From the NCBI GenBank assembly GCA_963706325.1, contig CAVPLT010000005.1, positions 290,454-354,453 of the forward strand: DNA of 64,000 nt, given 5' to 3'. How positions within the stretch are numbered: position 1 is the stretch's first letter; the number at the start of each line of letters is the position of its first letter. Below, piece after piece: positions 43,145-58,822 of the stretch. A program made the position numbers and the translations under genes. The notes under the pieces were generated by a model. That model saw only the letters and a list, made by a program, of their open reading frames with translations, was not told the origin of the DNA and searched no databases. Origin of the DNA: an uncultured Nitrospiraceae bacterium. GTDB taxonomy: Bacteria > Nitrospirota > Nitrospiria > Nitrospirales > Nitrospiraceae.

Positions 43145-43393
43145 GTGTCGAAAGTGAGGCCTCACACCAGTGAGACGACTGGCCTCATGCGGCTCATCGA
43201 TTGCCTCTCAGCCCATACGATACACGCCATAGTGAGTCAGCGGCGGATTCCCCATGTGAAGGTCGGACGGCTCGTGAAGTTCGATGTGGCCCTGCTCGAT
43301 GCATGGATCAAGCAGAATACGGTGACGCCAATGGTGCAGCGACGGTCCTGTAGACTGGAGGGAAAGGCGGGTGCATCCAGGGCCGCGCCCTAG
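43145..43393 (+). pseudogene. Degenerate excisionase (HTH_17)
   Basis: LSAHTIHAIVSQRRIPHVKVGRLVKFDVALLDAWIKQNTV, close to 56866; N-terminal helix lost. Confidence 0.8.
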
Positions 43394-43699: not shown

Positions 43700-43900
43700 T
43701 CTCCGGCACTCGAGTATAGCCTTGGTGAAACGCCATGCGCATCTGAGCCCATCCCATCTGCACGCTGCAGTAGAAAGATAGCCTCCTTCGGCAGAAGTAT
43801 CGACGCAACGAGAAGCAGTCACCCCAGAGGAATAGGATCAGCCTCCTTTTCAAATGGAACCGTTTCAAATGGAACCGTGACAGAAACCGGAACGGTTGAA
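43700..43900 (+). pseudogene. Tyrosine integrase C-terminal remnant
   Basis: LRHSSIALVKRHAHLSPSHLHAAVE (decayed LGH...RYAH box), followed by AACCG direct repeats and the att site. Confidence 0.65.
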
Positions 43901-43941
43901 CAGCCTAAGGAGAGGAAAGTCATCGAAGCGACTGAAAGTAT

Positions 43942-43987
43942 TGGTGCCCCCCGGCCTGAATTGAACAGGCGACCTTCGGTTTAGGAA
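43942..43987 (-). repeat. att site: diverged 3' half of tRNA-Arg(CCT) including CCA
   Basis: Minus strand TTCCTAAACCGAAGGTCGCCTGTTCAATTCAGGCCGGGGGGCACCA vs tRNA TTCCTAAACCGCGGGTCGCACGTTCAATTCGTGTCGGGGGCACCA. Confidence 0.9.
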
Positions 43988-44117
43988 TCAGTGGAAAGGG
44001 GATGCTCAAGTCGTTGATGACTTGGGCATCTCCCGCCACTACAGCGGCTGGAGCGAGGTTGGCCTTCACTTCTAGTAGCAGCACTTCGTACCAATTCCAT
44101 TCGTTTTGTCTGTATTT

Positions 44118-44215
44118 CTAACACTAGGCTAACACCTGCCCCCCACCTGGCAGACCCCCCCGCCGTCATTGGGTATTGGTACCATCTGGGCAATGCGCGG
44201 TGAAAACAAAATGGG
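44118..44215. repeat. About 100-bp intergenic repeat, copy A (with TAACAC arm-like doublet)
   Basis: 22 bp identical to copy C; 17 bp identical to copy D. Confidence 0.85.
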
Positions 44216-44231
44216 CCGATGCGTCTCCATG

Positions 44232-44492
44232 CTAGGCTCGACGTTGTATGTCTTCGGAAATGCGGACATGCACATGACAGGTGATATCCATACCCGTGGC
44301 ATGTTGGCACCTGTTTTGGAGACAAGCCAAAACCATGCGCTTGACATGATTGACTGCCGCTGTTTGTGTGATGAACTTGCGTGTGTCAGGCACGGCGGTA
44401 ATCGGTGGAGTTCCGTCTGCAAAGGTCGCCTCGTAAACAAGAACATACCAGGCTTGGCACTTGCGTTGGAGTGTGATTGTAACTTCGACCAT
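44232..44492 (-). CDS. Small hypothetical protein
   Basis: 86-aa ORF ending just before repeat A. Confidence 0.5.
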   Translation of the reverse strand: MVEVTITLQRKCQAWYVLVYEATFADGTPPITAVPDTRKFITQTAAVNHVKRMVLACLQNRCQHATGMDITCHVHVRISEDIQRRA

Positions 44493-45205
44493 CGTACTGA
44501 AACGCTATTCAGGGTTGCGCGTAAAAACTGAGCCCCAAACTCTGAAGCGTGCGACCATATGATCGAGGCAGAGAAAAAGGTCAACGCAACGGCTTCATAT
44601 CTGGCTCGCGCTCAGGGTTCGTCACGACTTCCTGGCCGGGAGGTGTCAGGCCGAGTCGCCCCCGAGCCATGTTCCTTCAAAAATGAGACCAGGCCAAGCG
44701 TATCGAGCCGATGCTCGACCGTGTCACTCCTGTGTGCTGTAGCCACGCAGCATCGATCTTCAAGTAAAACTCACGAGTATCAGCCCTTCGTGTAAGCTGT
44801 ATATATTCCGAGTTGGCTGAAGGCTCTATCCGGAAACCACGTAAAAACAGATAGCATTCAACCAGATGTCGCTGAGTGAACATTCGTTGGTGGTTCAAGC
44901 ACACCCCTCAGACATCGAAAGGTCAATAGTCTTGAGAATGTCACTGTACCGGGTCAGGCAGGAATTACCACTAAGGATGTTCCTAGAGTCCAGTTGCATA
45001 GCCTCGGCACCTTTGTGCCATATCCTTGGGAGCACAATTTGGACTGCACTTTTGAAGCGTGGAGAGCGATGAGCCGTGGTATTCATAAGCCGTCGGTTTA
45101 TTCCCCGAACGACCTCGCCGAGCCCGTGAGGGGCCTCGAGAGCGAGAAGACGGCTAGGGGTTGCACTAGTTCTCGTCGGGCAATCCTGGATGTAATGGTT
45201 GTAAT

Positions 45206-45682
45206 ATGGCCTGCGAGCACGACTATCAACTGGAAACCGTCGGTGGCGTATACCTAACGGGGGCGTACGTCTGTCGGTTATGCAGCTACCGGATAGGAAT
45301 GTCCCACGAACAATTCCATCGACAAGCTATGTATCCAGGGCATTACCAAGCCGACGTGAGCGTCGCAGAAACCGTTGAACAGCGAGCACACCATGCGCGC
45401 GAACGGTATGTCCAACGGCTTAGGGACCAAATGAGGGAACTCTCCGGCGAGAATTTGCCATCTGTACTGAGCGAAGATGAGCGCCACGAAATTCTGACAG
45501 AAGTAATCCAGGAGGCCTTGTTGCAAGTCGTGAAGGACTGCCAGGAAGTAGCGAAGGGTTCTGGTCTGTCTGAAGCCAAGAAGGTTGCGGAGTTTATCGA
45601 GAGAAAACTTGGTGGCAGGACGAAAGATAATTCCTCGTCCCGTTACGCAATGCTGCCTAGCTGCCCTAGAAGGGATAGCTAG
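45206..45682 (+). CDS. Hypothetical protein
   Basis: CEH...CRLC N-terminus; helical C-terminus. Confidence 0.55.
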   Translation: MACEHDYQLETVGGVYLTGAYVCRLCSYRIGMSHEQFHRQAMYPGHYQADVSVAETVEQRAHHARERYVQRLRDQMRELSGENLPSVLSEDERHEILTEVIQEALLQVVKDCQEVAKGSGLSEAKKVAEFIERKLGGRTKDNSSSRYAMLPSCPRRDS

Positions 45683-45729
45683 GGGATAAGTGGCTCTCGC
45701 TAGTGGTCACCGGCGACCTTGCCGCTTGT

Positions 45730-46179
45730 ATGAACGCTAAGGCTTGGTTTCAGTTGCTTCTCGTTTCATTCTTGCCCCTCGTGTCCAGCTGCGCTGTTAC
45801 CGTCAAGGAGTTCCGCGAAAACCCCCTTATGGTCTTCAGTAAGGTCTCTGGCAGGCACGAGACTGTGGCGAATTGCATCATGCACCGCCTGGAGGAGACG
45901 GTGGACACCTGGCCGGACATGTTCAGGCTTACGACAGAAGGGGCCCGCACATCACTCCTAATCAGCCGGTTACAATTGGCCGGACCGTTTTTGTTCAAGC
46001 TTTCACCGCTTGCGGAGATGGTCTTTACAGAGACCAGGCCAAAAGATCTTCTTGTCGAGGCTAGATACCGAACATCTGTCGATGGCGAGTACTATCTGGA
46101 ACAGGCGAAACCATTAATTGCCAGTTGTGGCAAGCAGTCCCTGTCTAACAATACCTCAGCTTCCTTTCGCACTCATTGA
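45730..46179 (+). CDS. Lipoprotein
   Basis: Signal peptide ending VSSC; two further Cys. Confidence 0.7.
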   Translation: MNAKAWFQLLLVSFLPLVSSCAVTVKEFRENPLMVFSKVSGRHETVANCIMHRLEETVDTWPDMFRLTTEGARTSLLISRLQLAGPFLFKLSPLAEMVFTETRPKDLLVEARYRTSVDGEYYLEQAKPLIASCGKQSLSNNTSASFRTH

Positions 46180-46294
46180 CCACCGAGCCACCAGCGGGCC
46201 CGATTCACCCCCAACGACGACCGGCATGGGAACCATCACCCCTCAAGAACGTAGGTCAAAACAAAGGTACCCACCTGTCATTAGGTCCCAGATT

Positions 46295-46373
46295 CACCCC
46301 ACCGTCATCGGTTCACCGTGCCGCCCCTGATTGGGTCGGGTCCCATACCTGACATGTGCGCTTCAAACAAAAG
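46295..46373. repeat. Intergenic repeat, copy B
   Basis: cgtc.tcggttcacc.tgcc shared with C; ccatacc.gaca.g.gcg shared with D; ends aaacaaaag. Confidence 0.75.
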
Positions 46374-46853
46374 TGAGCATGGGTGATTTTGGCACGAAAA
46401 CGGCGTTGGCAGTTTGTGCATGACACTCCGAGAGGTCGCCTTGCATCGGACTGCCTAACTTATGGTGAGATCGGTGTGAATGACAGCCTTGGCATGGGCG
46501 TGTGCGCCTGTCTGAGGTTGGCTCAGACGCAGAAGATCTAGAACCACACCGTAAGCCTTGATACGTCCTTCTGATCGCTTCCTCTCGTTCACAGGTTTGT
46601 TCGGCCAACATACGCTGCCCGACCGTGTACGTCTGGCAGGTTGGCTCGGACGCATAAACCGGCCACTGACCGTGTCATACACTTGCCGAGAAAGAGTCTC
46701 AAGGGCCACCGTTCTCGGGTCTGGCTGAACTACACGAAGACGCTGCAAGATTCCAGACTAGGGACAAGAACGTCGACGAGACCACAGGGAGTTAGTCATG
46801 TGCGGCGTCAGAGGTAGTCGAACCGCGAAGGAAGGTCCTGAACGGCGTACAGG

Positions 46854-47258
46854 CTACAGACGGGCCCAAGGTCTCAACGTACCGATAGAATTGAGATGCA
46901 CCAAAATTCGACCGCTTCCTAGCAGGTAGTCAACGTGCGCGTGGAATTGGCCCTGCACCGAACAACTGGCGATGACGTCGGCCAATCCCGGCTGGGCCAC
47001 ATACCTGACACCCCCCAACTCCCGGCACCAATCCGCTTCGATATTGAGATGCTCCTCCAGCTCCCACACAGCAGACTCGCTCTCCGGCACGGAGATATGC
47101 AGATGAAGCATATTAAGTTCAATCGACGAATCGGGATACATGTTCATGAACGTGCCTGCGCTCACGTTCCCGTTCACGCGTACCATGTACCGTCTCCTGG
47201 AAGGATCACAAAAGTCCTCACACTCATCCAGTACTGGAGGGGTGACAACACACATCAC
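46854..47258 (-). CDS. Hypothetical protein
   Basis: 134-aa ORF with protein-like composition. Confidence 0.45.
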   Translation of the reverse strand: MMCVVTPPVLDECEDFCDPSRRRYMVRVNGNVSAGTFMNMYPDSSIELNMLHLHISVPESESAVWELEEHLNIEADWCRELGGVRYVAQPGLADVIASCSVQGQFHAHVDYLLGSGRILVHLNSIGTLRPWARL

Positions 47259-47279
47259 AGGCTGGTGGGATCAATGGAG

Positions 47280-47456
47280 TCAAGGCTCATCCCTGCCAGC
47301 GATGAGAGCCTTGCAGCGATCCATCATGGACGATGCGTAGTAACTCATGACGGCGCATTCCACGATGTTCATCTGCGGGATGTCCTTCAGGGCTGGAGAC
47401 AGCAGGGACTCACACAGTCGCGCGAAGTCTTGGAGTTCTTGACGGACGTTTTCCAT
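47280..47456 (-). CDS. Small hypothetical protein (MENVRQELQDF...)
   Basis: Helical, protein-like 58-aa ORF. Confidence 0.45.
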   Translation of the reverse strand: MENVRQELQDFARLCESLLSPALKDIPQMNIVECAVMSYYASSMMDRCKALIAGRDEP

Positions 47457-47853
47457 TACCACACCATCCAAGTGAGTGCTACAAAACAAAGCAGCAACCC
47501 CACCGCCTCCAACGTGGCAACACACCAATATTCTTTGTCATCCATTCTTGTGCCGTGTCCTTTCCTTGAGAATGAGGTCAAAGGACAGTGGAACACGGCA
47601 GGCTTGGAAGTGCGATATGTCTAATGAGGAGTTGTTAGAAGTACGTACAAGGACGGAACAACGGGCGCGTGAGAGACACGGCACAAGGGGGTGTTGGAGC
47701 CATACAATGGGTCCCACCTGTCAATCCCAAAAGATTAAGACCATCAAAAGACGGAGCAACCACATACAGTACACGGTGATTTATCGGGATCTTCACCAAG
47801 TGACAAACTAGAGAAAGAGAAGGTATGCTCCTCCCGCAGGAATGAGGTGAGAA

Positions 47854-48837
47854 ATGGTTTCCAACGCTGCTTTACACGTTTCGAATGCCAAGCAAGGTGC
47901 TGATCCTCGTGCCGCTCTCGCGGAGTTGAAGACGGAGGCGCGTGGATGCCAAACCCCCAAGCAATTTCGTGACCTCCTCAAGCATGTGCAGGCGTGCATC
48001 CCTTACAGTAAATTCGCCGGCACGTGGGGCTATCCCTCGCGCACCATCCTCCGCTTTTTCTTTAATCAGGGATTTTCCCGCGACCTGATTCGCTGGCGTC
48101 TCACGACCGGCGCATTGTGGACCAGTCCGTTGTTTGAGGAATGGCTTCGGACAAAGCAAACAATCCTGTGGTGCGATGCCGTGAAGCCCCTGAAGGCGCA
48201 ATTTGATCCTGAACTGCTCCGGCGGATGAAGCAGGCTGGGGCACAGTATGCGCTGTGCGGGGGATTGGCTAGCCCAGACTACTACGTATTATTTGCAGCC
48301 GCCATGCCGTCTGCGGCGAGTGGAAGAGCGCATCTGAAGCAATTCAAGTCCATTGTTCCATTGCTGGTCCAGGCGAGCCAGCGTGCTTATCCAGATGGAT
48401 TGCTCACAAAGCGCGAGACGGTTGTGCTTGAACGTCGCGCAATGGGAGAGATTATTAAACAGATTGCGTTGGCCGAAGGGATCAGCGAGCGTACAGTTCG
48501 TGAGCACTTCCAGCGGATCAAAAAGAAGCTCTATACCGATGATCTGGTAAACGCTGTCGTCATCGCAGTGAAAAGCGGGTTGCTACTTCCTGCTGGAAAA
48601 AAAGGTTTAGTGAAGCACCCACTTCGCACGGAGTCGGGGTTAGACACGCCAGCCCTGAATCCTGATAGAAGGGGCCGACATACTGAAGAGCGTTGTGCTT
48701 CCAGCCTAAACAGATATTTCGCCAGCCGAATCTGGCTGAGCCGTCCATTCTGCCAGTCCCAGGCCAGCATTTTCTCCTTCACGAGACTGTCTCGCACTTC
48801 TAGGACCACAGCGCGGTTGTCGTCTCGATACCAGTAG
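47854..48837 (+). CDS. LuxR-family regulator with autoinducer-binding-like N-domain
   Basis: LTKRETVVL...G..IKQIA...GISERTVREHFQRIKKKL HTH; the tail after about 48610 may be read-through. Confidence 0.85.
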   Translation: MVSNAALHVSNAKQGADPRAALAELKTEARGCQTPKQFRDLLKHVQACIPYSKFAGTWGYPSRTILRFFFNQGFSRDLIRWRLTTGALWTSPLFEEWLRTKQTILWCDAVKPLKAQFDPELLRRMKQAGAQYALCGGLASPDYYVLFAAAMPSAASGRAHLKQFKSIVPLLVQASQRAYPDGLLTKRETVVLERRAMGEIIKQIALAEGISERTVREHFQRIKKKLYTDDLVNAVVIAVKSGLLLPAGKKGLVKHPLRTESGLDTPALNPDRRGRHTEERCASSLNRYFASRIWLSRPFCQSQASIFSFTRLSRTSRTTARLSSRYQ

Positions 48838-48875
48838 AAGCCTGCTTTAGTGGGGTGCTCCGTGGTCCATTTCAT
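48531..48875 (-). CDS. Mobile-element-type small protein (MKWTTEHPTKAGFYWYR), C-terminus uncertain
   Basis: WTxxxPxxxGxYWY N-terminus; starts 15 nt from repeat C; overlaps the LuxR tail. Confidence 0.45.
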   Translation of the reverse strand: MKWTTEHPTKAGFYWYRDDNRAVVLEVRDSLVKEKMLAWDWQNGRLSQIRLAKYLFRLEAQRSSVCRPLLSGFRAGVSNPDSVRSGCFTKPFFPAGSSNPLFTAMTTAFTRSSV

Positions 48876-48889
48876 TGCCGTTATCAATT

Positions 48890-48987
48890 CTAACTAGGCT
48901 AACACCTGCCCCCCGTCGTCGGTTCACCCTGCCACCGCCATTGGGTTGGGACTCCTGTGGGAAATGTGCGGTTAAAACAAAAGGGGG
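48890..48987. repeat. Intergenic repeat, copy C
   Basis: actaggctaacacctgcccccc identical to A; cattgggt and aaaacaaaa conserved. Confidence 0.85.
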
Positions 48988-49320
48988 AGATTTAGCTATT
49001 GAACGCTTATTGGAAATGATGATGTCTGTGTAGGGGTCCGACCTACGGCCAGCTGTTTCATCCTCAACCCGCCCCCAGGTGCCCACGCGCTCAGAGACTT
49101 CATGGCACGAGCGTGGAACGGGCTGAAGTAAGGCTTGACTCTGGATTACAGGGGGAGCCAAGCTGAAATATCCGTGGAGGTCTGTATGAATCCTCGGGTA
49201 ATGCCGCATCCCACCACCACTTTCTTCTATCCTTATGATAGCCGTGCATCTCCCTGCTCCCTCTCGGTTGTTAATGTGAAAGCCAGATGACAATCAATCG
49301 ATGAGAAGGAGTAGTTGGCT

Positions 49321-49641
49321 ATGAAAACACTAACCTCAGTAGCTCTTAGTCTATTGTCTGGAACGCTCGTCGCCACCGTGGCGTTCGGTAATCCGACAAT
49401 GCTGCCACAGCATCCCGGTTACCCCATGAACAAAGCGATAGATCCAGTCGGCGGCCAATCGCTTGCGAATGATCCTGGCCGCCAGAATGCCGTAGGGGAC
49501 TCCGCGCTTCGTCAGTCGGCGGCCATCAGTGACGCGAATCTGTCCCAACAGTTATCGCCCAGCGACCAGGACAAACTCAGTGAAACGCCCGCAACTGATG
49601 TCAAATCGAAAGAGCAGGAGCCCAAGACGGATCGCCGATGA
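49321..49641 (+). CDS. Exported hypothetical protein
   Basis: AAGGAG RBS, signal peptide, NPTMLPQHPGYP. Confidence 0.75.
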   Translation: MKTLTSVALSLLSGTLVATVAFGNPTMLPQHPGYPMNKAIDPVGGQSLANDPGRQNAVGDSALRQSAAISDANLSQQLSPSDQDKLSETPATDVKSKEQEPKTDRR

Positions 49642-49952
49642 AGGGCAATGCACAACCTTAACAGCAAAAATAGATTTCTGGTGACGGGTGGTGGCGAGAG
49701 GGTCTGCAGGGTACGGCAAGGGGACAGCGATAAAAGCCGTGTCCTGCGGCTCTCATCCCAAACTTCATGCACAGAGAGTACACACACACACACTGATCTC
49801 TCCTGACTACTCCCGCGCGAACATGCTGAGTAGCGACAGGAAGAACACCATCGCCATCAACGCTACAAGAACTCGTCACTTGATAGTCTGCCTTCCGGCG
49901 GGTGAGTGATCAAGTTCACTGCCATCTGTGCTGTTTCTCATATCAATACCAT

Positions 49953-50035
49953 ACTAACATCACCCCACCTGGCAGACCCGCCCCCCGTCATTGGTTCTGG
50001 TTCCATACCCGACACGCGCGGGTAAAACAAAAGGC
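49953..50035. repeat. Intergenic repeat, copy D
   Basis: ccccacctggcagaccc identical to A; ccgtcattgg and aaaacaaaa conserved. Confidence 0.85.
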
Positions 50036-50062
50036 GGAGAGGCGTTGCACGGAGACACGATG

Positions 50063-51466
50063 TCAATGGTCGGCTAGGCTTGACATCTCTTTGGGGGACC
50101 TCCGGTTGCACCAAAGCGTAGCCCACCAGAGAGCGAGGGTCGGAATAAGGAAGGCCTCGATGAGGAGTCCTTTGTACGCGTCGGGCCCAGCCCGCACGAA
50201 CGGTGGTAGCGCGGCCACCAGCCCTAAAGGTGCCACAATGGCGAGCAAATTCTGCCAACGGGGATCCCCTTTGTTCGCTTTGACGTGGGCCCTGTAGCAG
50301 CCACCCCAGACAAGACCCAGCAAGACCGCGCCAGCCACGATTCCCCATACGCCGAAGTTTAGGTACCACCCGGTTGCATGGTGGAGGGTATAGGCTTCTC
50401 CGGTGGGGCCCTCGTCGATTCCAAGACTTTGAGCATATTCAGTATAGCTGGCCGACGAACGTTCACCTCGGAACACACTGGGAACTAACGATGCGGCCAG
50501 CGAGATGAAGCTTGATCCATACGTCAGAGGCGCATGAGACTCTAGTAGACCATAGAGCGAGAAATGAGCGGCAAAGGCCTCCCCGCTCGAACGGATCCCC
50601 GGTGCCTCCTCCAATGCTTCCCACCACGTTTCCGTATCTAATAAGGCCAGCATTGGCAAGCTTCTGAGAAAATTGATGGCTCCAATGAATAAGAAGACAA
50701 CGAGGGCCATCGGTATCGTCAGCTTCCACTGTATCCGCGTCGTATTCGTGGAATAAAACAACCCACTTAATATCAATGCCGAGAGCAGCTCATTTTTATT
50801 GCCAAGCATGGCCAAGTACCCAAGCGTGCCAACTAGCAGGAGCACGTACATGACACCGATACCGACGGACTGGCTCCCTTGGATGAAGAGCGCCCGACCA
50901 GGGGTCAGGTACACTGCGAATCCAAGCGCCAAGGAAAACACCGCCATGCGATTGAACACTTGATGAATGGTAAATAAAGGATGGTAGGCACCCAGTCCGC
51001 CTCTTGTTGCCACATACGCCGATATGTTCATTTCAGCGGCACTGGTGAGCTGTTCCGCCAAAATGATGAAACTTCCGATGACACTGACGGTAGCCAGTAT
51101 GAAAAGCGAGACATGGGAAATGTGAATTGGCGCACCGGCCAGCGATTCACCCACCGGGGAGCGTCCGCTGACCTTCCACAAGAGGGTAAGCTCGACGAGC
51201 ATGATAAACGCCGCATAGAGAACCAACGTCATCATGTAGTCATCATTCAACTGGATGGGATACATCCGCTCGGCGAGATAATCATATTGCTTTTCACTCT
51301 CCCCACCCAGTTGAGCGCCGACAATTGACCAGGCCCCATAGAGAGACCAGTAGTAGAGGAGGCCAATTCCTACAAGAAAACTTATCTGCCGGGTGAGTAC
51401 AGACAACAGCGCCGCCAGGGCGGCAATCGCTGCGGTGACAAGCGTTAAGACGACATAAAAATCCAT
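50063..51466 (-). CDS. Polysaccharide polymerase Wzy-like membrane protein
   Basis: About 11 TMs, late periplasmic loop with LTYGSSF...LVPS and GWYLNFGVWG. Confidence 0.75.
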   Translation of the reverse strand: MDFYVVLTLVTAAIAALAALLSVLTRQISFLVGIGLLYYWSLYGAWSIVGAQLGGESEKQYDYLAERMYPIQLNDDYMMTLVLYAAFIMLVELTLLWKVSGRSPVGESLAGAPIHISHVSLFILATVSVIGSFIILAEQLTSAAEMNISAYVATRGGLGAYHPLFTIHQVFNRMAVFSLALGFAVYLTPGRALFIQGSQSVGIGVMYVLLLVGTLGYLAMLGNKNELLSALILSGLFYSTNTTRIQWKLTIPMALVVFLFIGAINFLRSLPMLALLDTETWWEALEEAPGIRSSGEAFAAHFSLYGLLESHAPLTYGSSFISLAASLVPSVFRGERSSASYTEYAQSLGIDEGPTGEAYTLHHATGWYLNFGVWGIVAGAVLLGLVWGGCYRAHVKANKGDPRWQNLLAIVAPLGLVAALPPFVRAGPDAYKGLLIEAFLIPTLALWWATLWCNRRSPKEMSSLADH

Positions 51467-51514
51467 GCAGGTTCCGGTATGCGGCAGGTCAGGAAATCGA
51501 AGGCGGATTATACG

Positions 51515-52609
51515 TCAGGGCCGATCCAGCGTCGAATGTTCACTGAACATAGCGGTAATAACTTTAGGCATCGCCAGGAATAGGAGACCTTTGAGTGAGC
51601 CCACCCCATGCCCTATGTGCCGAATAGCGTAGACGAGCGGGAGGGTCGCCATGTATGTCGCGCACTTCAAACGAATGGACATCCGAAGGGACATTGCCAG
51701 GGTCACGACCACATACGTCGCGCCGATTGTAGCCGGGACCCAGGTCCACGGCGATTCAGTTATCCACCCTGCCAACAGTGCGAGGAGAGCGAGCACGAAC
51801 GCAAGGGGAACGTAGTGTCGCCATGACGCCGCCTGTTTGCGAAATTTCCAGGCGTAGACGGCCCAGAATCCATCTGCAAGGTTATGCTTCCAGAACGTCC
51901 ACAAATCGGCATCTGCGTAATAGGTGACGTTGATCTGCGGCACCAGGAGAATCCGTCCTCCATTCGCGAGATTCTTTTGTTGTGTTCCATGTCTGAGTTG
52001 CGGATCTAATCGTTCGTCAAAGAGTCCTATCTCGTCAAATAGCTCTCGTTTCCAACATCCAAAGGCCACAGCATCGGTGTAGCGGAGGTCGGCTGCCCCC
52101 ACTTTTACCGCCGCATTGCCCGAACCAAAGGGGTCGGACAACACGAAGGCGATAGACTTTGCTATCAAAGTCTCGTTTCGGGGGGCAATGGTGAGCACAC
52201 CGCCAACCATTTGTTCTCTGCAGGTCATCAGATAGTGAACACATTGACGAATGTAATCTGTCGGGTAGGAAGAATGGGCGTCCGCCTTCATCACAACGTA
52301 GCCAGTCGATCGACCAATGCCGAGGTTCATGGCAGCGGGAATGGTCCGCTGTTCATTTTGTATCAGGAAAATGTTGGAGTGCTGAGCGACATACTCCTGA
52401 ACCACCTCTGTGGTACCGTCCACACTCATGCCATCGACCACGAGAATCTCCAGCCGATCCACGGGATAGTCGTTTGAGAGCAATGAATCAAGGCACGGGG
52501 CAATGCACGTTTGCTCATCCCGGCACGGGATAATCACCGAAACAGGTGGAGGATTCTCTTCCAGCGATTGGAAAGGACCCTTGGTGTATTGGACAGACGC
52601 GAATTTCAT
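51515..52609 (-). CDS. GT2 glycosyltransferase (ExoA-like, C-terminal TMs)
   Basis: VSVIIPCRDE, VVDGMSVDGT, KADAH and IGLFDERL motifs; a short locally shifted stretch near 51960-52005 is likely. Confidence 0.9.
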   Translation of the reverse strand: MKFASVQYTKGPFQSLEENPPPVSVIIPCRDEQTCIAPCLDSLLSNDYPVDRLEILVVDGMSVDGTTEVVQEYVAQHSNIFLIQNEQRTIPAAMNLGIGRSTGYVVMKADAHSSYPTDYIRQCVHYLMTCREQMVGGVLTIAPRNETLIAKSIAFVLSDPFGSGNAAVKVGAADLRYTDAVAFGCWKRELFDEIGLFDERLDPQLRHGTQQKNLANGGRILLVPQINVTYYADADLWTFWKHNLADGFWAVYAWKFRKQAASWRHYVPLAFVLALLALLAGWITESPWTWVPATIGATYVVVTLAMSLRMSIRLKCATYMATLPLVYAIRHIGHGVGSLKGLLFLAMPKVITAMFSEHSTLDRP

Positions 52610-53000
52610 TCTGGAGCAATCAGATAACGCCTGGAGGTAGTTTAGAGGTTATGGGTCAAGTAGCGTAGTCGTCTCAACAGCGGGCTGACCCGCAGCACGT
52701 TATGACAAGTCTCTATAGCTACACCATGGGGCTACGAATGTCTACGGGGGTCAATTGGGAGGAGTTAGACAGACTGAAAAGGTGGATGTAATGGACGAGG
52801 CACTACAGGCTAGATAACCATTACTTGCCCTGCGAAGCTTTCCCCATGTACGTCTGTATGTCCTTAATAACCTCTGCATAATAGAGGCAACTACATAATA
52901 ACGAGACGAGCGTGGTGCATACGGTACAGCGGCCAGTTGTTGCCTATAGTGACACAGGATAAGGCCACTCTATAAGCTGTTACCGTTATTAGTTTGTGAC

Positions 53001-53091
53001 CTAATAGGCGTTCTATGAAAGTCTATGAGGGTGTGAGTGGGGATGAATTGGTAGCCCATTCAAGGTCGGTCTAAAAGTAACGGAAGCGGTG
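53001..53091. repeat. About 90-bp direct repeat, family 2, copy 1
   Basis: ctaataggcgttctatgaaagtctatgagggtgtgagtggggatg...gaagcggtg aligns with 54229-54311. Confidence 0.8.
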
Positions 53092-53207
53092 CGCCTGGAA
53101 CGCAGACCTGTACTCAAGTAAGTGCCCTCACACCAATCTTTCTTCTTCCCCTGCCCCCTGTAAGGCACAGCCAACCCCGCATATGGAACTCGCTGCGGCC
53201 TGAGGTC

Positions 53208-54032
53208 TCAACGGGTGCTGCGAATCGGGACCTCTTTTTTGATTTCTCTACCATCTCTCAGTAAGTCCACTATCACAGTGTGTCCGGCGCTGCGCTCAAC
53301 AGAGTCCATAAAACTATGTACATCAGATATAGAGTACTCGCCGATTTGCCGGATTATATCTCCCCTAAATATGTCAGCGTGAAACGCAGGAGTACCATTT
53401 CCCACCACCACAACCTGAACGCCTTTGTTACTGCCTATCTGCTTCCGTTGCTCCTGTGAGAGGTCCTCGACTTTAGCTCCGAACCTCATGGGCTTTGCTT
53501 TCACCCAATAAGTGGCTCCATAGTCGTAGCGATCCACGTTATAAGGCATCATCGTGGTTCGGCTTCCATATGTTGTCGTGTTCGCAGTCCCAGAGTAGTT
53601 TCCTATGCCCCCTTGACCGAAGGTGGTACCTGATATCTGGGTCGTCGATGTTTGGGTATTTGGGACCGTTAGTGGGACCGCCCCTGAGTGGGTATGAGTG
53701 TAAGCACTATATAGAATAACTACAGCAGCGTGGATATCCTCGCCATGTGTGACTGCGTCCTTCTCATTTACGCGTCCTGCGTTAAAGGTCGAATAGCCTA
53801 TCTTGACGTAACCTTCCTGGAACATTCGTAAATCGTCAGCGGCTGGGGAGGTTCCCCTGATGACGGTAGGAGGATCTCCTGACAAAACTAATTCATTTTT
53901 GTGAGCTAGGACCTCTTCTGCTTTACTGCCTGTATAGAACTTGGCAAAGTTGTTTGTGCAGCCAGCCAGTGTCATTGTAAGAATCATTGCCGCTGCCTGC
54001 AGGACCGTTGTTCGCACAAGAACCTCCTTCAC
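53208..54032 (-). CDS. Lipoprotein with C-terminal PDZ domain
   Basis: LAGC lipobox; FGAKVEDL, GTPAFHADIFRGDII and LLRDGRE motifs. Confidence 0.85.
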   Translation of the reverse strand: MKEVLVRTTVLQAAAMILTMTLAGCTNNFAKFYTGSKAEEVLAHKNELVLSGDPPTVIRGTSPAADDLRMFQEGYVKIGYSTFNAGRVNEKDAVTHGEDIHAAVVILYSAYTHTHSGAVPLTVPNTQTSTTQISGTTFGQGGIGNYSGTANTTTYGSRTTMMPYNVDRYDYGATYWVKAKPMRFGAKVEDLSQEQRKQIGSNKGVQVVVVGNGTPAFHADIFRGDIIRQIGEYSISDVHSFMDSVERSAGHTVIVDLLRDGREIKKEVPIRSTR

Positions 54033-54228
54033 TGATAATGCAACGAGATTACAATGACTAGACGATAAGCTAACGGCCTAGGACAGTCTGCGTAGTAGGC
54101 TGGACTATATAGAGAGCGCCTTAAGTTGTACATAGTGCCATTAGGGCCGATAGATATCTTATTGTTGCCTTCTAGATAGCTGCCTATGGTGCCATTGAAC
54201 ATAGCCGCCAACTAACCCTTTATTGGTT

Positions 54229-54311
54229 CTAATAAGCGGCTTATGAAAGCTTATGAAGGCGTGAGTGGGGATGGGTTGTGGACCGCCAAGCTGAGTGCAA
54301 AAGAAGCGGTG
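54229..54311. repeat. Direct repeat, family 2, copy 2
   Basis: ctaataagcggcttatgaaagcttatgaaggcgtgagtggggatg...gaagcggtg. Confidence 0.8.
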
Positions 54312-54322
54312 ATTTGCACCGG

Positions 54323-54811
54323 TTATGAGTCACAAAGTTGTCGGTAGTGGCTATAAGCGTCCACGAGCGAAGACAGTCTGAGGAAGGGCTGAAACATCGA
54401 AGGTTTCCAACCAGTCGCCTCTTGGATAAAGCCGCCCTTTGTCATTCGGTCCCGACTCCATGCCTGATCTAGTACAGGCAACGTCAGCCAGTTTACGTGA
54501 TCGCCCGTCACTGCGTCCGTGGGCCATGTGAAATGATCCAGGAATGTTTTTTGTCCCTGTGTAAGCCCCTCATTGGCGAAAGGCATATAGCTGGGTAATC
54601 CACGCGGTCTCGGTTCCACATACCAGCGTATAGGGATAAGACCGTTTCTGTAGTCGCCAGTGCCAACCCGTGTAACCCACTCATCGAACAGTTCTAGCGC
54701 CGACGCATCGTCGATTGTGTAATCATCGGAAATCCAGCTCGCATCTATTTCGTAAATTGCCCACAGTTCCGTCTCAAATTTTCGCTCCCCCCGTTTTTTT
54801 GGTACCGCCAC
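54323..54811 (-). CDS. Trp-rich hypothetical protein
   Basis: 162 aa; FTWPTDAVTG..VNWLTLPV.D and GGFIQEATGWKPS. Confidence 0.7.
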   Translation of the reverse strand: MAVPKKRGERKFETELWAIYEIDASWISDDYTIDDASALELFDEWVTRVGTGDYRNGLIPIRWYVEPRPRGLPSYMPFANEGLTQGQKTFLDHFTWPTDAVTGDHVNWLTLPVLDQAWSRDRMTKGGFIQEATGWKPSMFQPFLRLSSLVDAYSHYRQLCDS

Positions 54812-54877
54812 AAGTTCACGTTAGGTACTCCCTTCTACAAGCGGTTTCTAAGCTGTTGGATCTAAATACAACTATTT

Positions 54878-54970
54878 AGTTGTCTATCGGCAGACAACTG
54901 AGCTTGACATACATAGGCATTCACTATATCTAGTGGGTATGTGATGTGATTACCACAATATGTTGTGGTT
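54878..54970 (+). promoter_or_regulatory. AT-rich divergent control region with TTGACA and palindromes
   Basis: agttgtct-N6-agacaact, TTGACA at 54904, cacta-tatc-tagtg, accacaa-tatg-ttgtggt. Confidence 0.55.
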
Positions 54971-55011
54971 ATTGGTGCCATTCATTCAGTTAGAAATACA
55001 AGGAGGATTCC

Positions 55012-56316
55012 ATGCATATGAGCGGCAATTCAGCTGTTGGCGAACGATCGAGAGCTTTGCTTAACAATTCATCATACCCGCAAATACAGCATGGTCAACC
55101 CCCAAGTTGCTGGCCCACACTGAAACCAGAGGCACTTGATGGCTTGGCCGGAGAGATCGTCCGGGAACTGGATCAGTACACCGAAGCGGACCCGGTGGCG
55201 GTCCTCGCTCACCTCTTGGCCCAGCTCTCCTGCTATATCGGTAAGTCTCCAGCGCCTGAAGTGTTGCTGGGAGGAGTGGGCAGTCCGCTTGCATTTTGGC
55301 CTGTCGTAATCGGCGATACGAGTAAGGCGCGTAAGGGTACTGCGGCTAAGGAAGCAGAGGGAGCCTTCGAGAGGTCATTTCCGGGATGGTCCAAAGACCA
55401 ATTGCGAGGCAATCTCTCCAGCGGTGAAGGCCTTGCCTATGCGGTGCGGGACGCTGGCTGCGAGCCAGGAGACGAAGGGATCCAGGACAAGCGGCTCTAC
55501 CTCGTGCAGCCCGAATTTGGCAGCATGCTCAAGCTGATGGGGCGTGAAGGCAATAGCTTATCAGGAATTATCCGTGACGCCTGGGACGGGGTAGATTTAG
55601 CTCCTCTTACGAAGAATTCACGAGTTCGAGCCACCAAGCCTCACATTGTCATCGTAGGTCACGTCACGAAAGAGGAATTACGCAAGGAGCTTAAAGCCGT
55701 TGAGCAATGCAACGGTTTTGGCAATCGTTTTGTCTGGCTGGCGGTTCATCGATCAAAGGTCCTAACTTTTCCTCCACCTCGGGATGAACGACGCCTCGAT
55801 GAGCTAGCTACCCGCCTCAAGGAGGTCGGCGGGTTTGCCCAAAACGTCAGGTCCGTCGGCTGGTCGTCGGATGGGAAAGACGCCTGGGCTAGCGTGTATC
55901 CGGTACTGTCGGAAGGAAAGCCTGGATATGTGGGAGCCCTTCTCGGAAGAGCGGAGGCGCACGTCGGGCGATTGGCTGCGCTGTATGCCTTGCTCGACCA
56001 AAAGTCTGAGATCGAAGCCTGTCACGTCCAATCTGCATTGGCGATATGGGAACACTCGGAAGTGTCCGCTGAGTGGATCTTTGGTCATGCAGATCAGATT
56101 GCAGAGCAAGAGAACAAGCTGCTCCGTGAGCTGGTGCGTTCTCGTCAGCTCACCGATTCAGATGTCAGCAAATTATTCGGGCACAACCTCGCGAGCGACA
56201 AGCTTGGACGGCTTAAAGATTCGTTGGTCAGCCAAGGTCTCGCGCACCACGAAACGGCGTCCACCGGAGGAAGGCCGATGCAGATCTGGAAGTCGGGGCC
56301 ACGCGTGACCGGGTAG
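55012..56316 (+). CDS. DUF3987/YfjI-family replication-associated P-loop protein
   Basis: GLAGEIV...TEADP, VIGDTSKARKGT, LSSGEGL, EFGSML, RDAWDG and NGFGNRF motifs; AGGAGG RBS. Confidence 0.85.
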   Translation: MHMSGNSAVGERSRALLNNSSYPQIQHGQPPSCWPTLKPEALDGLAGEIVRELDQYTEADPVAVLAHLLAQLSCYIGKSPAPEVLLGGVGSPLAFWPVVIGDTSKARKGTAAKEAEGAFERSFPGWSKDQLRGNLSSGEGLAYAVRDAGCEPGDEGIQDKRLYLVQPEFGSMLKLMGREGNSLSGIIRDAWDGVDLAPLTKNSRVRATKPHIVIVGHVTKEELRKELKAVEQCNGFGNRFVWLAVHRSKVLTFPPPRDERRLDELATRLKEVGGFAQNVRSVGWSSDGKDAWASVYPVLSEGKPGYVGALLGRAEAHVGRLAALYALLDQKSEIEACHVQSALAIWEHSEVSAEWIFGHADQIAEQENKLLRELVRSRQLTDSDVSKLFGHNLASDKLGRLKDSLVSQGLAHHETASTGGRPMQIWKSGPRVTG

Positions 56317-56336
56317 GCATCAGGGAGGGGATATTT

Positions 56337-56468
56337 CTTTTTTCGTAGACCTTAGGTGCAGAGTGCTGAGAGTTCACTACTCAATAGAAAAATCAGTAAG
56401 TAAGACAATGGCGAGACATATGAAGACTTGCGGATTCACACATACGGGCTACGAAAGAACGAAAAAAG
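56337..56468. repeat. Inverted iteron-like repeats (candidate origin)
   Basis: cttttttcgtag (56337-56348) faces ctacgaaagaacgaaaaaag (56449-56468) across an A-rich spacer. Confidence 0.55.
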
Positions 56469-56865
56469 TGTCTCAGGTCCTCGTCCCAGTGAAGCGCAAC
56501 GATGTGTAAGCCGAAGGGTGAGCCTGCTCCTCTTTCGCAGGCGAACCCTGAGGCCTCCTCTCTTCGTCGGCCAGGCCGACCATGAGGCAGCTAGGCACAT
56601 GTTTTAGCATAAAGACCCGCAATGGCTAGGTAGGCATGGGCCTGCGGGATTGATCAGAAAAACATTACGAAACGATAACAAAATCTGAAAGGAAGGGTAC
56701 CCACATGCAGCATCACTCTCGCAAAGATGGCAATACGCGCCAAGTGCCTAGATTGTTCCTGCGGACAGCCAAAGGAAGTGCGGCTCTGTCCCATGACCAC
56801 GTGCGCTCTGTGGCCTTACCGAATGGGTAAGCGCTCAAAAGAGATGAGCGGGAGCGAGGCTAGCC

Positions 56866-57075
56866 ATGAATGAGCAGGCTGCGTTGAAGAAGCTTATAGG
56901 CGTAGTGGAGGCCGCACAGTACACAGGCCTATCCGTGCATACCGTTTATGCGATGGTCAGCCAGCGGCGTATCCCGCATGTAAAAGTGGGCCGACTGGTC
57001 AAGTTCGATGTGGCCATGCTGGATGCGTGGATACGGAAGAACACCGTGATGCCTATGCCACCAAGACGCGCATAG
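56866..57075 (+). CDS. xis: Excisionase / HTH_17 DNA-binding protein
   Basis: LIGVVEAAQYTGLSVHTVYAMVSQRRIPHVKVGRLVKFD. Confidence 0.88.
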   Translation: MNEQAALKKLIGVVEAAQYTGLSVHTVYAMVSQRRIPHVKVGRLVKFDVAMLDAWIRKNTVMPMPPRRA

Positions 57076-57141
57076 ATCGCGAGATACGAGGCGGACGGGG
57101 TGCCAGTCGTGGCCCCGCCGCCGCCCAGCTTTGTTAGCGGG

Positions 57142-57270
57142 CTATTGCAGAAGATTAAGGGTCAATATACCCAAGGCGAGAACGAGACTCGCCACTGCGA
57201 GCCAGCGGTACCAGCGGTTATTGTAGTCGGTCTTGTCGAAGGTGTCCGTGTAGCGATTGCGTCCGTTCAT
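57142..57270 (-). CDS. 42-aa membrane micro-protein, copy 3 (not in ORF track)
   Basis: MNGRNRYTDTFDKTDYNNRWYRWLAVASLVLALGILTLNLLQ; AAGGGAG RBS; TAGAAT 21 nt upstream. Confidence 0.85.
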   Translation of the reverse strand: MNGRNRYTDTFDKTDYNNRWYRWLAVASLVLALGILTLNLLQ

Positions 57271-57343
57271 CTGATTACTCCCTTGAGAGCCATTCTACGG
57301 CACAGTGTGGCATGAAAAAAACCCCACGAAGGTCGGATTAAGA

Positions 57344-57378
57344 TTGACAGCGAGGTGTATCTTTATATACCATCCATT
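57344..57378 (+). promoter_or_regulatory. Promoter for the XRE-integrase unit, probably leaderless
   Basis: TTGACA-18-TACCAT, ATG 5 nt later, with gtgtat-cttt-atatac palindrome in the spacer. Confidence 0.6.
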
Positions 57379-57591
57379 ATGCTCACACAGTTGAAGAAAT
57401 GGCGAGAAAAGCGGGGGTTCTCCGTGCGCAAGCTTGGGGAATTAGCAGGTGTTACCCATGTGACTGTCGTGCGCATGGAATCAGGCAAGCTGGACCCGCG
57501 CCTCTCAACGGTCCTCAGACTGTGTAGGGCATTAGGCATTACGGTGGATCAACTGTTAGGCGTGGCCACTGAGCCACGGAAAGGTAGGTAG
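57379..57591 (+). CDS. XRE-family HTH regulator
   Basis: LKKWREKRGFSVRKLGELAGV...RMESGK.DPRLSTV..LC.ALG. Confidence 0.9.
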   Translation: MLTQLKKWREKRGFSVRKLGELAGVTHVTVVRMESGKLDPRLSTVLRLCRALGITVDQLLGVATEPRKGR

Positions 57592-57595
57592 TCCG

Positions 57596-58714
57596 ATGGG
57601 ACTGACTAGACGGAAGGACAGCTATTATGTCGAGTTTCGAGTGCTCGACGATGGCAAGGCGCTGAGGCTAGCCCATGAAGGTGCGGGGGGAAGGCTGAAG
57701 CGGTGGAAAGTTGGATCGCTCAATAAGACCCTGGCTAAACAACACGAGTCGATCATTAAGACGGACTTGATGAAAGGCAGCATTACAACTGACCAGGCCA
57801 AACTTGTTCGGTTTAAGGAATGGGGATTTCGCTACTTAGAGCTGGAAGAGGTTCGGCGCTTACGGTCTTTTCGAGACCGAGATAGGATTCTCAGGCACCA
57901 CCTAATACCCTATTTCGGCGCTTTGGCCTTGTCTGAGATCAAGCCAGACGACGTTGAGCAGTATCGAAGCCAGCGGCGTAAACAAAATGGTGACGCGCCT
58001 ACACTCCAGACCGTAAACAATGACCATATTATTCTGAAGCATTGCCTCAACGTAGCGATTCGACGCGGATTGCTCGTGAGTAATCCCGCTTCCAAAGTGC
58101 CCCTACCGGACCCTCATAATGAACGAGACCGTGTGTTAACAGAGGGTGAGTGGGAACGCTTGCACGAGGCAGCGGCTCCGCACCTCAAGCCCATGCTCCT
58201 GCTGGCCTACCATCTAGGGCAACGCTTTGGAGAGATTACTAATTTGACGTGGGACCGCGTGGACCTTCAGCGGGGGTTCATTACCCTGCGTTCCATTGAT
58301 ACTAAGACTAAAAAGGCGAGACAGGTTCCACTCACACCCGCCGTACGGTTAGCCTTGAGCGAGTTAGCCAAGGTGCGGCGTCTGAATACGAACCATGTCT
58401 TTGTGTATGATGGGCAACCCATTAAGAGCATTAAGACTAGATTCAGGAGAGCTAAACGGGTCTCGGGGGTCAATGGCTTCCGCTTCCATGACCTACGACA
58501 TTGTGCAGCAACGAACCTGAGAAGGGCTGGAGTTGATACAGCCACGGCGATGCGGATTGTGGGTCACAAGTCCGAGAAGATGTGGAAGCGGTATAACGCG
58601 ATCGACGAGAAGGACCTTACTAAGGCAGCCTCCAGGCTCAACACTTACCTTGAAGCTAACACGGTATTAACACCTGCCGATTCCGCCGCAGCTTCAGTCC
58701 CTGTAACTGCTTGA
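57596..58714 (+). CDS. int: Tyrosine recombinase / integrase (intact)
   Basis: LGQRFGEI (R), TKT (K), FHDLRH, VGHK and KRY catalytic set; ends 5 bp from the tRNA CCA. Confidence 0.95.
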   Translation: MGLTRRKDSYYVEFRVLDDGKALRLAHEGAGGRLKRWKVGSLNKTLAKQHESIIKTDLMKGSITTDQAKLVRFKEWGFRYLELEEVRRLRSFRDRDRILRHHLIPYFGALALSEIKPDDVEQYRSQRRKQNGDAPTLQTVNNDHIILKHCLNVAIRRGLLVSNPASKVPLPDPHNERDRVLTEGEWERLHEAAAPHLKPMLLLAYHLGQRFGEITNLTWDRVDLQRGFITLRSIDTKTKKARQVPLTPAVRLALSELAKVRRLNTNHVFVYDGQPIKSIKTRFRRAKRVSGVNGFRFHDLRHCAATNLRRAGVDTATAMRIVGHKSEKMWKRYNAIDEKDLTKAASRLNTYLEANTVLTPADSAAASVPVTA

Positions 58715-58719
58715 TAAAT

Positions 58720-58796
58720 TGGTGCCCCCGACACGAATTGAACGTGCGACCCGCGGTTTAGGAAACCGCTGCTCTATCCAACTGAGCTACGGGGGC
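58720..58796 (-). tRNA. tRNA-Arg(CCT)
   Basis: GCCCCCG...CGGGGGC-ACCA; anticodon arm GCGGT-TTCCTAA-ACCGC. Confidence 0.97.
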
Positions 58797-58822
58797 AAGG
58801 TTGATTTCAATGGTTTATATTC

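Follow-up and report, generated by a model that had tools for sequence, protein, structure and literature searches.

A three-box repeat of a tRNA-Arg(cct)-integrated Nitrospiraceae island as a candidate mimic of a phage packaging signal

The window, that is the whole 64,000-nt stretch of DNA of an uncultured Nitrospiraceae bacterium that was analysed, carries a 14.8-kb island, which is integrated at tRNA-Arg(cct) and encodes an integrase, an XRE protein, an HTH_17 protein, and a DUF3987 protein. The genes and ends of the island are the following:

43942–43987, minus strand: att core at the integrase-distal island end, a duplication of the 3′ 46 nt of tRNA-Arg(cct) (tRNA match)
43988–44118, plus strand: conserved core-to-arm spacer of the distal end, present in 6 island ends of the genome at E ≤ 7e-36 and also in relatives
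44119–44135, plus strand: distal TAACAC-N5-TAACAC pair, putative arm-type sites, position conserved across the clade
47854–48837, plus strand: cargo, LuxR-family regulator (PF00196, E 1e-10; 56% to another copy on contig C7)
50063–52609, minus strand: cargo, family-2 glycosyltransferase (PF00535) and 467-aa membrane protein (51% and 55% to two neighbouring genes of contig C1)
53001–53050, plus strand: second repeat type, copy 1 (TATGA pair, 11-bp period)
54229–54278, plus strand: second repeat type, copy 2
55012–56316, plus strand: DUF3987 protein, of the primase family of the PICMI model (PF13148, E 2.9e-8)
56727–56873, plus strand: 48-aa cysteine-rich gene common to phage L215 (73.5% over 34 aa; 70.6% over 102 bp)
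56866–57075, plus strand: HTH_17 protein of the excisionase/AlpA type (PF12728, E 4e-13)
57379–57591, plus strand: XRE-family HTH protein (PF01381, E 2.5e-13)
57596–58714, plus strand: tyrosine integrase (PF00589, PF14659)
58657–58673, plus strand: integrase-side TAACAC-N5-TAACAC pair
58720–58796, minus strand: tRNA-Arg(cct), the integration target

The 467-aa membrane protein is without a Pfam match, and we infer that it is polymerase-like. The second repeat type, of which a third copy was found at C4:1007913, is likely an end remnant of another element. The att duplication matches the tRNA-Arg(cct) copy of contig C4 (positions 33–77) at 97.8% identity, and the window's own copy at only 83%. 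The latter is probably a variant or error-rich, because the right end of the window overlaps the start of C4 at about 90% identity and with frameshifts.

The first-pass annotation had described in this island four copies of a repeat (A to D) in one orientation, and all four were confirmed:

44139–44213, plus strand: copy A (terminal), candidate phage packaging-like signal; phage-only model E 0.0014 genome-wide; box 1 at 44149, dyad at 44178, A-tract at 44204–44211
46200–46268, plus strand: possible decayed copy in tandem with B, recognized by eye, with stretched spacing
46298–46374, plus strand: copy B (internal, without arm sites); phage-only model E 0.067 genome-wide and 0.00024 island-only; box 1 at 46310, dyad at 46338, A-tract at 46365–46372
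48888–48985, core 48909–48985, plus strand: copy C (internal), arm pair partly deleted; phage-only model E 0.0005; box 1 at 48921, dyad at 48948, A-tract at 48975–48982
49961–50034, plus strand: copy D (internal, arms decayed); phage-only model E 0.0039; box 1 at 49971, dyad at 49999, A-tract at 50025–50032

The reported 22-bp block common to A and C and the 17-bp block common to A and D are both exact, and so is the 18/23 match of the start of copy A to the 3′ end of the integrase gene (58656–58678). Copy B has exact blocks of only 10 bp with C and with D. The copies appear to have become mosaic through scattered recombination among themselves. Of the two weaker traces that had also been reported, the one near 46200 (plus strand) could be a decayed copy, while the one near 47460 is no copy and lies inside an unrelated block (47264–47713), which occurs at 4 other places in the genome; neither scored at E ≤ 10 in an island-only scan with either profile.

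The repeats consist of two joined parts, which are TAACAC-N5-TAACAC pairs and a separate element of ~78 bp with three boxes. The pairs occur 12 times in the host genome. Of 77 related loci, 33 have the exact pair at the integrase 3′ end, and it also occurs at the distal att end in 15 places; among 113 sequences, some of them overlapping, there were 40 integrase-side and 15 distal pairs. They are thus direct repeats in pairs, at a constant distance from the att core on either side, which is the arrangement of arm-type sites. By position, the earlier proposal that they flank the att cores of this Nitrospiraceae integrase clade as arm-type sites holds, and they are likely sites of this kind. The view of copy A as the terminal module of the element was also borne out, since 6 ends in the genome share the spacer, the arms and the inner part. 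Arm sites are absent or decayed in B and D, while in C the homology to terminal ends extends 33 bp to the left of box 1.

The three-box element has a central dyad and does not fold. A profile of this inner part gave 15 matches at E ≤ 1.1e-7 in the 4.24-Mb genome, while none was obtained at E ≤ 3 on the locally shuffled genome; across the family 57 copies were counted. The element is often located 130–190 bp inside tRNA-derived att ends, a tRNA fragment lies at most 600 bp upstream of 27 of the 57 copies, and the arrays are unidirectional in 19/19 neighbour pairs. These positions largely refute the idea that the element is a dispersed REP- or MITE-like repeat, which is hardly credible even though its 15 genomic copies include two (C7:334830 and C4:1001876) not tied to any att end; the copies cluster in tRNA-linked islands, have neither inverted ends nor a stable fold, and are single in phages. 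The element is found behind a variety of unrelated end types and tRNA targets, and it is therefore independent of one integrase. G-tract motifs, which occupy the same slot in other island ends, were also considered and were not detected beside terminases in any pattern. The central dyad has at least 3 pairs in 47 of 64 copies, a count that includes kin and so is not one of independent copies, compared with 6–13 copies at five offsets and 13 after shuffling, and the pairing is maintained by differing sequences. A structured RNA or hairpin was rejected, as the folding z-scores were −0.23 to 1.81 (10 strands), with 0 consensus pairs in sets of 14 and of 26 copies; no single nick or crossover point was found in the element.

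Integron attC arrays are characterized by IntI, a bottom-strand hairpin, a fixed crossover, and common gene orientation. The island resembles them in that its cargo genes are separated by direct repeats close to a tyrosine recombinase, and it had been compared to an integron-like cassette array. That comparison is not supported, because IntI, the hairpin, the fixed crossover and the common orientation are all missing: the first ORF downstream of the element is sense in 19, antisense in 23, and absent in 15 cases (n = 57). None of 18 matches to the IntI model TIGR02249 in the genome exceeded the cut-off, which no positive control reached either. Site-specific recombination of the repeats by the island integrase, with gain or excision of cargo cassettes, is consequently very unlikely. 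Such recombination would agree with the arrays of direct repeats that separate cargo genes in 12 loci, with the retention of most of an arm pair in copy C, and with one cargo block that ends at a partial copy on C4. Against it, B, C, and D lack an att core, and linkage is low throughout the element (rho −0.09 to 0.31) and breaks at no single point. Blocks of cargo homology also mostly end elsewhere than at the repeats. No RNA run was listed among the public runs containing this DNA. In contigs of public runs, one join across an empty site was seen, from 43896 to 58719 (a single run, with a short side of 28 letters), and clean deletions from repeat to repeat were not. The A-to-C joints in these contigs have other letters between their sides, and the joints match other island ends. 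A join of 58686 to 43948, considered as evidence of a circle, matches the C4 variant and is no proof of one.

A stepwise accretion behind the internal copies, which the earlier reading had proposed as cargo capture or exchange, is likely, with intermediates seen in locus L091, where the integrase-end arm pair is fused directly to the element, and in locus L021, which has three copies with graded left truncation. B, C, and D are likely accretion remnants, possibly kept by selection. It is a serious possibility, only somewhat short of an even chance, that the element functions at island ends or in phage only, and that accretion in tandem followed by deletion, of the CIME type, has left the internal copies as neutral scars. 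The graded left truncation and decay, the tandem islands with inner att fragments in the host genome, and the accretion documented for integrative elements in the accessible part of the source (PMC5704250) agree with neutral scars, and tandem integration alone yields the same orientation. On the other hand, most internal copies retain three boxes at the right spacing where the adjoining 125-bp spacer and core are lost, and the spacer profile found no orphan spacer without element or att fragment in the genome. Neutral scarring would be limited to the internal copies and is compatible with a packaging role of copy A. The same source, as far as it was available, describes ICE/IME/CIME composite islands with inner end remnants, formed by tandem integration at one tRNA and decay; the inner remnants here differ in lacking the att core and retaining a phage-derived element, and no conjugation genes were found.

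The element is present as a single copy in 14 different sequences of uncultured phages, where it lies upstream of the terminase–portal genes and is co-oriented with them. A family-wide pattern matched 5 contigs in IMG/VR, representing 3 distinct phages, compared with about 1 chance match expected by our own estimate. All five contigs scored with the island profile (E 1e-9 to 6e-4), and in them the element lies upstream of portal, major head, and terminase-like genes. A large ORF of these phages matches annotated terminases (E 1e-26), and this phage terminase was the query with which 58 loci were gathered. Twenty of the 58 have at least 62% terminase identity; in 10 of these the element lies upstream, on the same strand as the terminase, and the other 10 do not have it. 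The latter have at most 1,414 bp of upstream DNA, while the element was found in 9/9 loci with at least 1.6 kb. A relaxed three-box pattern was applied to 24 additional loci, of which 22 are more distant, and detected the element in 7; it was upstream in every case, with 0 matches downstream and 1 on the reverse strand, and box 1 was recovered beyond what the pattern demanded. The element is also present in phages with only 45–55% terminase identity, which counts against the packaging reading. Over 67 bp, copy A is 75% identical to the phage copy of L179 and 73% to that of L220, with a 14-bp exact block shared with L220. In the reciprocal direction, a model of 7 phage copies had as its top 7 host-genome matches only island copies, including A, B, C, and D, while its best E on shuffled sequence was 1.3; this test is not fully independent, because all 7 phage copies had been first located by island-derived patterns or profiles. 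Three narrower patterns matched 0 viral contigs, and another one was discarded, as its only match, a metagenome contig, scored E 0.13. When copy C was compared by blastn with 50,697 phage and 72,556 plasmid records, all matches had E ≥ 0.3, and the element was not within 1.5 kb of 14 GpA, 29 TerL_ATPase, and 24 Terminase_6N loci of Nitrospiraceae. In 41 of 58 loci the contig ended at a shorter distance from the terminase on the upstream side than on the downstream side, which was not used as evidence because virus callers favour contigs with capsid genes.

The position of the element in phages could also be explained if it were no packaging signal but a regulatory site, such as a late-gene activator site, or a replication origin, and if islands had copied it so that an infection would switch them on or replicate them. 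This explanation is unlikely, and it keeps some weight because the phage gap that holds the element also contains promoter-like sequence and a phage-only upstream motif. The gap separates leftward and rightward phage genes, the element is 3–8 kb from the terminase gene in three phages and only about 40 bp from the first late gene in L180, and its fixed spacing would suit any multi-protein site. This explanation fits the islands less well, where the following ORF is about equally often in antisense and in sense, copy D points toward the 3′ end of a gene that converges on it, no sigma-70 promoter match lies within A to D, and a DUF3987 gene of the island's own is present; sigma-70-like hexamers, recognized by eye, are separate from the element and downstream of it in some phages. 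An IHF-like motif is near 4 of 7 phage copies and absent in 3. The putative small terminase had no family or structure match, its predicted models being of low confidence (pLDDT 52 and 55).

Similarly, an origin of transfer or rolling-circle origin of a conjugative element or inovirus is improbable, slightly more so than cassette recombination. Islands with oriT only are common in other bacteria according to the accessible part of one source (10.64898/2026.01.13.699239), and the integrase clade is also found in inovirus prophages bearing Zot and Rep_trans, with Rep_trans in one element-bearing island. Against this, the genome (96% complete) has no VirB4 family match, the element has no hairpin, and its copies in tailed phages would be left unexplained. 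With regard to an oriT shared with a co-resident conjugative element, there was no plasmid match above E 0.9. The idea of an inovirus satellite was dropped, as no copy was found in the fetched Zot-bearing loci.

Taken together with its position in phages, the ~78-bp core shared by all copies is probably a mimic of a phage packaging or genome-end signal, by which the tRNA-integrated island could be packaged as a satellite; the packaging signal that the first-pass annotation had named as its alternative is thus the best reading of the part common to all copies. The 14.8-kb island is likely a PICMI-like satellite mimicking its helper's signal, because the element is shared with phages, the top matches of the phage model are island copies, and the gene content comprises integrase, XRE, HTH_17, and DUF3987. 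In the available part of the PICMI paper (PMC10803314) the model consists of an integrase, AlpA (PF05930/PF12728), and a primase (DUF3987/DUF5906), and the island has this core (an integrase, a PF12728 AlpA/Xis-type protein, and DUF3987) with no capsid or terminase genes. A 6.1-kb relative, L171, has the same integrase, AlpA-type, and DUF3987 order and one terminal copy. The island differs from the Vibrionaceae elements in its integration at tRNA-Arg(cct) rather than beside fis, in its size of 14.8 kb with much cargo, and in its visible candidate packaging signal, where the same part of that paper states that neither a cos nor a pac site was identifiable. PICMI satellites are further characterized by a virulent helper phage and by packaging as concatemers within capsids of full size.

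A precedent for the signal is the Vibrio cholerae satellite PLE, whose mimic of the pac site of lytic phage ICP1 is, in the accessible text, 89 bp long with 71% identity and 14 bp exact (PMC11417361). As in PLE, a short stretch of similar size and likeness is common to an integrated satellite and the packaging-gene region of a phage. Unlike in that account, packaging genes of the Gpi/GpsA/GpsB type were not recognized here, by means other than a profile search. The signal, known from sequence, occurs in multiple copies and in islands whose integrases are of several types, and the putative helper differs in its SU10-like portal and in having relatives with terminal repeats. Its nearest annotated terminase (25%, E 1e-26) is that of Adat/Jasmine, which have the same divergent early/late layout with a genome end in the gap before the late genes. 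For Adat (Arthrobacter cluster AV), a 1,551-bp terminal repeat is given in the available part of the description (PMC5794937), and in record MF668266 the end of this repeat falls within the same gap between divergent genes, ahead of the late genes. The host phylum is different, and no clear copy of the element was seen by eye in the Adat gap.

If the core is a packaging signal, the HTH_17 protein and the integrase, using arm sites at both ends, would excise the island on infection, and the DUF3987 protein would help to copy it. The helper terminase would bind the boxes at their fixed spacing and cut at or near the dyad, and island DNA would fill a head of roughly 46–53 kb. Islands would integrate in tandem at one tRNA, and later deletions would remove the inner integrase, core, and spacer, with the signal surviving. 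Extra or alternative signals may be selected if they raise packaging or widen the set of helpers. A packaging role of the core would give a precise candidate packaging site for a PICMI-like element, provide a transfer route for islands without known mobility genes in a family central to nitrification, and tie an unassigned environmental phage clade to its likely host through a cis signal. More tentatively, and with a better chance of being wrong than right, several unrelated integrase types of Nitrospiraceae tRNA islands may form one satellite guild, which exploits just one clade of uncultured phages, podovirus-like and probably with terminal repeats, by means of a common cis signal, keeps allelic signal arrays so that a single island can use several helpers, and moves host genes that it has captured from one nitrifier to another; in that case the signal would also identify the phages' hosts. 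Exact-word searches of the open literature brought up no arrays of multiple allelic signals within one satellite.

With regard to the hosts, the phage terminase was found in 0 of 371 Nitrospiraceae genomes, and terminases of two families were not found in the host genome. L220 had no DNA match in 161 genomes, no stretch of at least 26 bp in the host's own genome matched the phage loci, whether as spacer or as other DNA, and phage L215 was absent from 4 soil runs. The clusters that were looked up included a 63% homolog assigned to a Nitrospira MAG and another homolog assigned to an Acidobacteriota MAG, either of which may be a binning stray. Two loci of the phage clade, L213 and L252, carry integrase-like genes.

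An island of 14.8 kb (43942-58766), delimited by a 46-nt duplication and located at the 3′ end of a tRNA-Arg(cct) gene, contains the repeats. The core of the island comprises genes for a tyrosine integrase and for XRE, HTH_17 and DUF3987 proteins. Among its cargo genes are those for a LuxR regulator, a PDZ protein and a glycosyltransferase accompanied by a membrane protein, together with small ORFs; several cargo genes have relatives elsewhere in the genome at 40-80% identity. The 77 loci fetched with the island integrase were nearly all titled Nitrospira, Nitrospiraceae or Nitrospirota. The first-pass annotation had described four repeat copies in a common orientation, and re-checking confirmed that the copies exist, that they are co-oriented and that the identities given for them are correct:

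~44118: copy A, terminal
~46295: copy B, internal
~48890: copy C, internal
~49953: copy D, internal

The first of two weaker traces, near 46200, is possibly a decayed copy, although the profile does not score it; the second, near 47460, is part of a different repeated block (47264-47713), which contains a small ORF and recurs at four further genomic sites with 74-82% identity. Searching the 4.24-Mb genome with a profile of the part shared by the repeats gave 15 matches, and the same search of a shuffled genome gave none.

The repeat consists of two parts, a TAACAC-N5-TAACAC pair and a separate element of ~78 bp. Twelve such pairs are present in the genome. The exact pair was found in 33 of the 77 related loci at the 3′ end of the integrase gene, and distal ends hold 15 pairs. 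Paired repeats at such positions are the geometry of tyrosine integrase arm-type sites, and the TAACAC pairs are likely sites of this kind. The ~78-bp element also follows island ends that have no TAACAC pairs, and hence it is not part of the att site of one integrase.

The element is composed of box 1 (GGCACACCC-like), a central box, a TG-GC step and an A-tract at fixed spacing. Of 64 copies, 47 have a central dyad; the corresponding counts were 6-13 when other offsets were taken and 13 when the sequences were shuffled. Differing sequences keep this dyad, and folding tests of the copies detected no fold. Within the genus, 5 of 39 genomes carry the element; within the family, it is carried by 15 of 151 genomes, which represent 8 of 39 genera. 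A tRNA fragment (Arg, Thr, Ser, Lys, Leu or Met) lies at most 600 bp upstream, mostly 130-190 bp away, of 27 of the 57 copies with E<0.01, a few of the 27 being weak or owned by a neighbouring element. Arrays occur in 12 loci, in which all 19 adjacent pairs are co-oriented.

The element is a phage sequence. No viral contig matched the first three patterns; a fourth, derived from the family-wide consensus, identified five viral contigs representing three phages, and all five also score with the island profile. In these five contigs the element lies upstream of a co-oriented block encoding an SU10-like portal and a major head protein, along with a ~555-aa protein that matches annotated terminases at E 1e-26. 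With this terminase as query, 58 viral loci were fetched. Among the 20 with at least 62% terminase identity, the element is located upstream on the terminase strand in 10, at a distance of 0.5-8 kb (nine with E<=0.017 and one with 0.073; best shuffled E 0.068), and in the other 10 the upstream DNA is at most 1,414 bp long. A relaxed pattern placed it in 7 of 24 further loci, always upstream, which brings the total to 14 distinct phage sequences. When a model was built from seven phage copies, its top seven matches in the host genome were island copies, including C, A, D and B, although the independence of this result is limited because the phage copies were first located with island-derived tools. 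Copy A and two phage copies share 73-75% identity across 67 bp, including a perfectly matching stretch of 14 bp. Nitrospiraceae genomes also encode terminases of three other families, and no such element was found near these.

A phage-only motif, CATAAT followed after 4-7 bases by TTATCNGA, precedes the element by ~70-90 bp in five phages and by ~260 bp in a sixth locus (L229), and is not present in the island loci. Its sites in the phage loci are:

L177:8477
L178:10147
L215:605
L216:1104
L247:623
L229:6163

The nearest characterised relative of these phages is Adat, the terminal repeat of which is given as 1,551 bp (PMC5794937) and ends in the gap between leftward and late genes; this gap corresponds to the one that holds the element in the element-bearing phages. 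For another phage, Shocker, a repeat of ~484 bp ending in a like gap was inferred from gene coordinates. Synteny with Adat suggests that the site may mark the genome's right end, which bears on the direction in which packaging would run. In a single case, the contig of a distant clade member starts just before a dyad-like box (L238:1-20), and this start could be a phage genome end. Searches by family, structure and model did not confirm the putative small terminase, which in L180 is at 9737-9300, with the putative large terminase at 9296-7635. A regulatory site or an origin in the phage gap is a possible role as well, but the copies in the island are not directed towards cargo genes and contain no sigma-70 match.

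The island is most likely a satellite. It has three of the four model markers of the Vibrionaceae satellite type PICMI (the missing one is fis), it lacks terminase and capsid genes, and a helper-like signal lies beside attP. The Vibrio cholerae satellite PLE is arranged in a similar way, with an 89-bp, 71% mimic described as needed for transduction (PMC11417361). The island would excise and replicate, its signal would be recognized by the terminase, and its DNA would then be packaged. Mimicry of packaging signals by satellites is known. Exact-word searches of open papers found neither Nitrospira, phage satellite and packaging together nor a paper matching multiple signal copies in a satellite, and the word "satellite" is absent from a soil nitrifier virus study (PMC11849493). 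Weak terminase-family genes, some with island-like surroundings, occur in many Nitrospiraceae genomes (L137-L156, L193-L201), and these loci are possibly capsid-forming satellites.

In other islands of the same integrase clade, G-tract motifs occupy the slot after the distal arm pair, which suggests an exchangeable signal slot for other helpers; these motifs had no phage match. The motif sites are:

L002:5134
L004:17323
L090:2260
L100:1841
L101:259
L103:2159

As to the phage host, the clade terminase was found in 0 of 371 Nitrospiraceae family genomes, and no spacer matched the phage loci to a host. Database labels for homologs of the phage clade were one Nitrospira MAG and one Acidobacteriota MAG. 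Arguments for a putative Nitrospira host are the element itself and a cysteine-rich micro-gene common to the island and phage L215. This unannotated 48-aa gene (56727-56873) precedes the excisionase gene and is also found in sister islands.

The internal copies B, C and D likely mark fused islands, because none of them has an att core, their homology to terminal ends left of box 1 is graded (62-77 bp in a relative, 33 bp for C and ~8-15 bp for B and D), an integrase-end arm pair is joined directly to the element in one related locus (L091), as expected if two tandem islands had lost the DNA between their arm repeats, and tandem accretion and decay of integrative elements are documented (PMC5704250). 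Such fusion agrees with the stepwise capture proposed earlier, there as an integron-like cassette array, but a cassette recombinase is not needed for it. Cargo blocks mostly end elsewhere than at the repeats, and public contigs contained no clean repeat-to-repeat deletion. Linkage is low along the whole element, and a single breakpoint is absent. Copies B-D may still be functional. The survival of their boxes next to lost spacer hints at selection, although these copies were located by those same boxes.

The integrase clade of the island (59-65%) also serves inovirus-type Nitrospiraceae prophages at tRNA-Arg or tRNA-Thr, at the following loci:

L019, L020, L051
L052, L055, L074
L078, L081, L083

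On the opposite side of the tRNA-Arg, the frameshifted start of a second element is present (58895-61450). Its counterpart on another contig of the host genome, C4, extends from 1813 onward (att 27885-27926) and is an inovirus-type prophage. It carries an integrase gene along with Zot-family and Rep_trans-like genes, after which come ~19 kb of cargo. The window end (57018-64000) overlaps the C4 start at ~90% up to 61453, with many frameshifts; 61206-64000, which contains a miaA-like fragment, an ECF sigma-like ORF and a protein kinase, diverges from C4 and is possibly the chimeric end of a contig. In a tRNA-Val island (L006:18826-19833 with L007:68-1297), Rep_trans lies beside an integrase, and the element is present in two copies. 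Just outside the att core, an orphan HTH_17 gene (43145-43393), 74% identical over 131 nt to the island excisionase gene, is a remnant of an older element. Repeats of a second type (53001-53050 and 54229-54278, with a third copy at C4:1007913) contain a TATGA pair with an 11-bp period; each of the two in the window follows a minus-strand cargo gene, beyond its 3′ end, and repeats of this type are possibly arm sites of another integrase.
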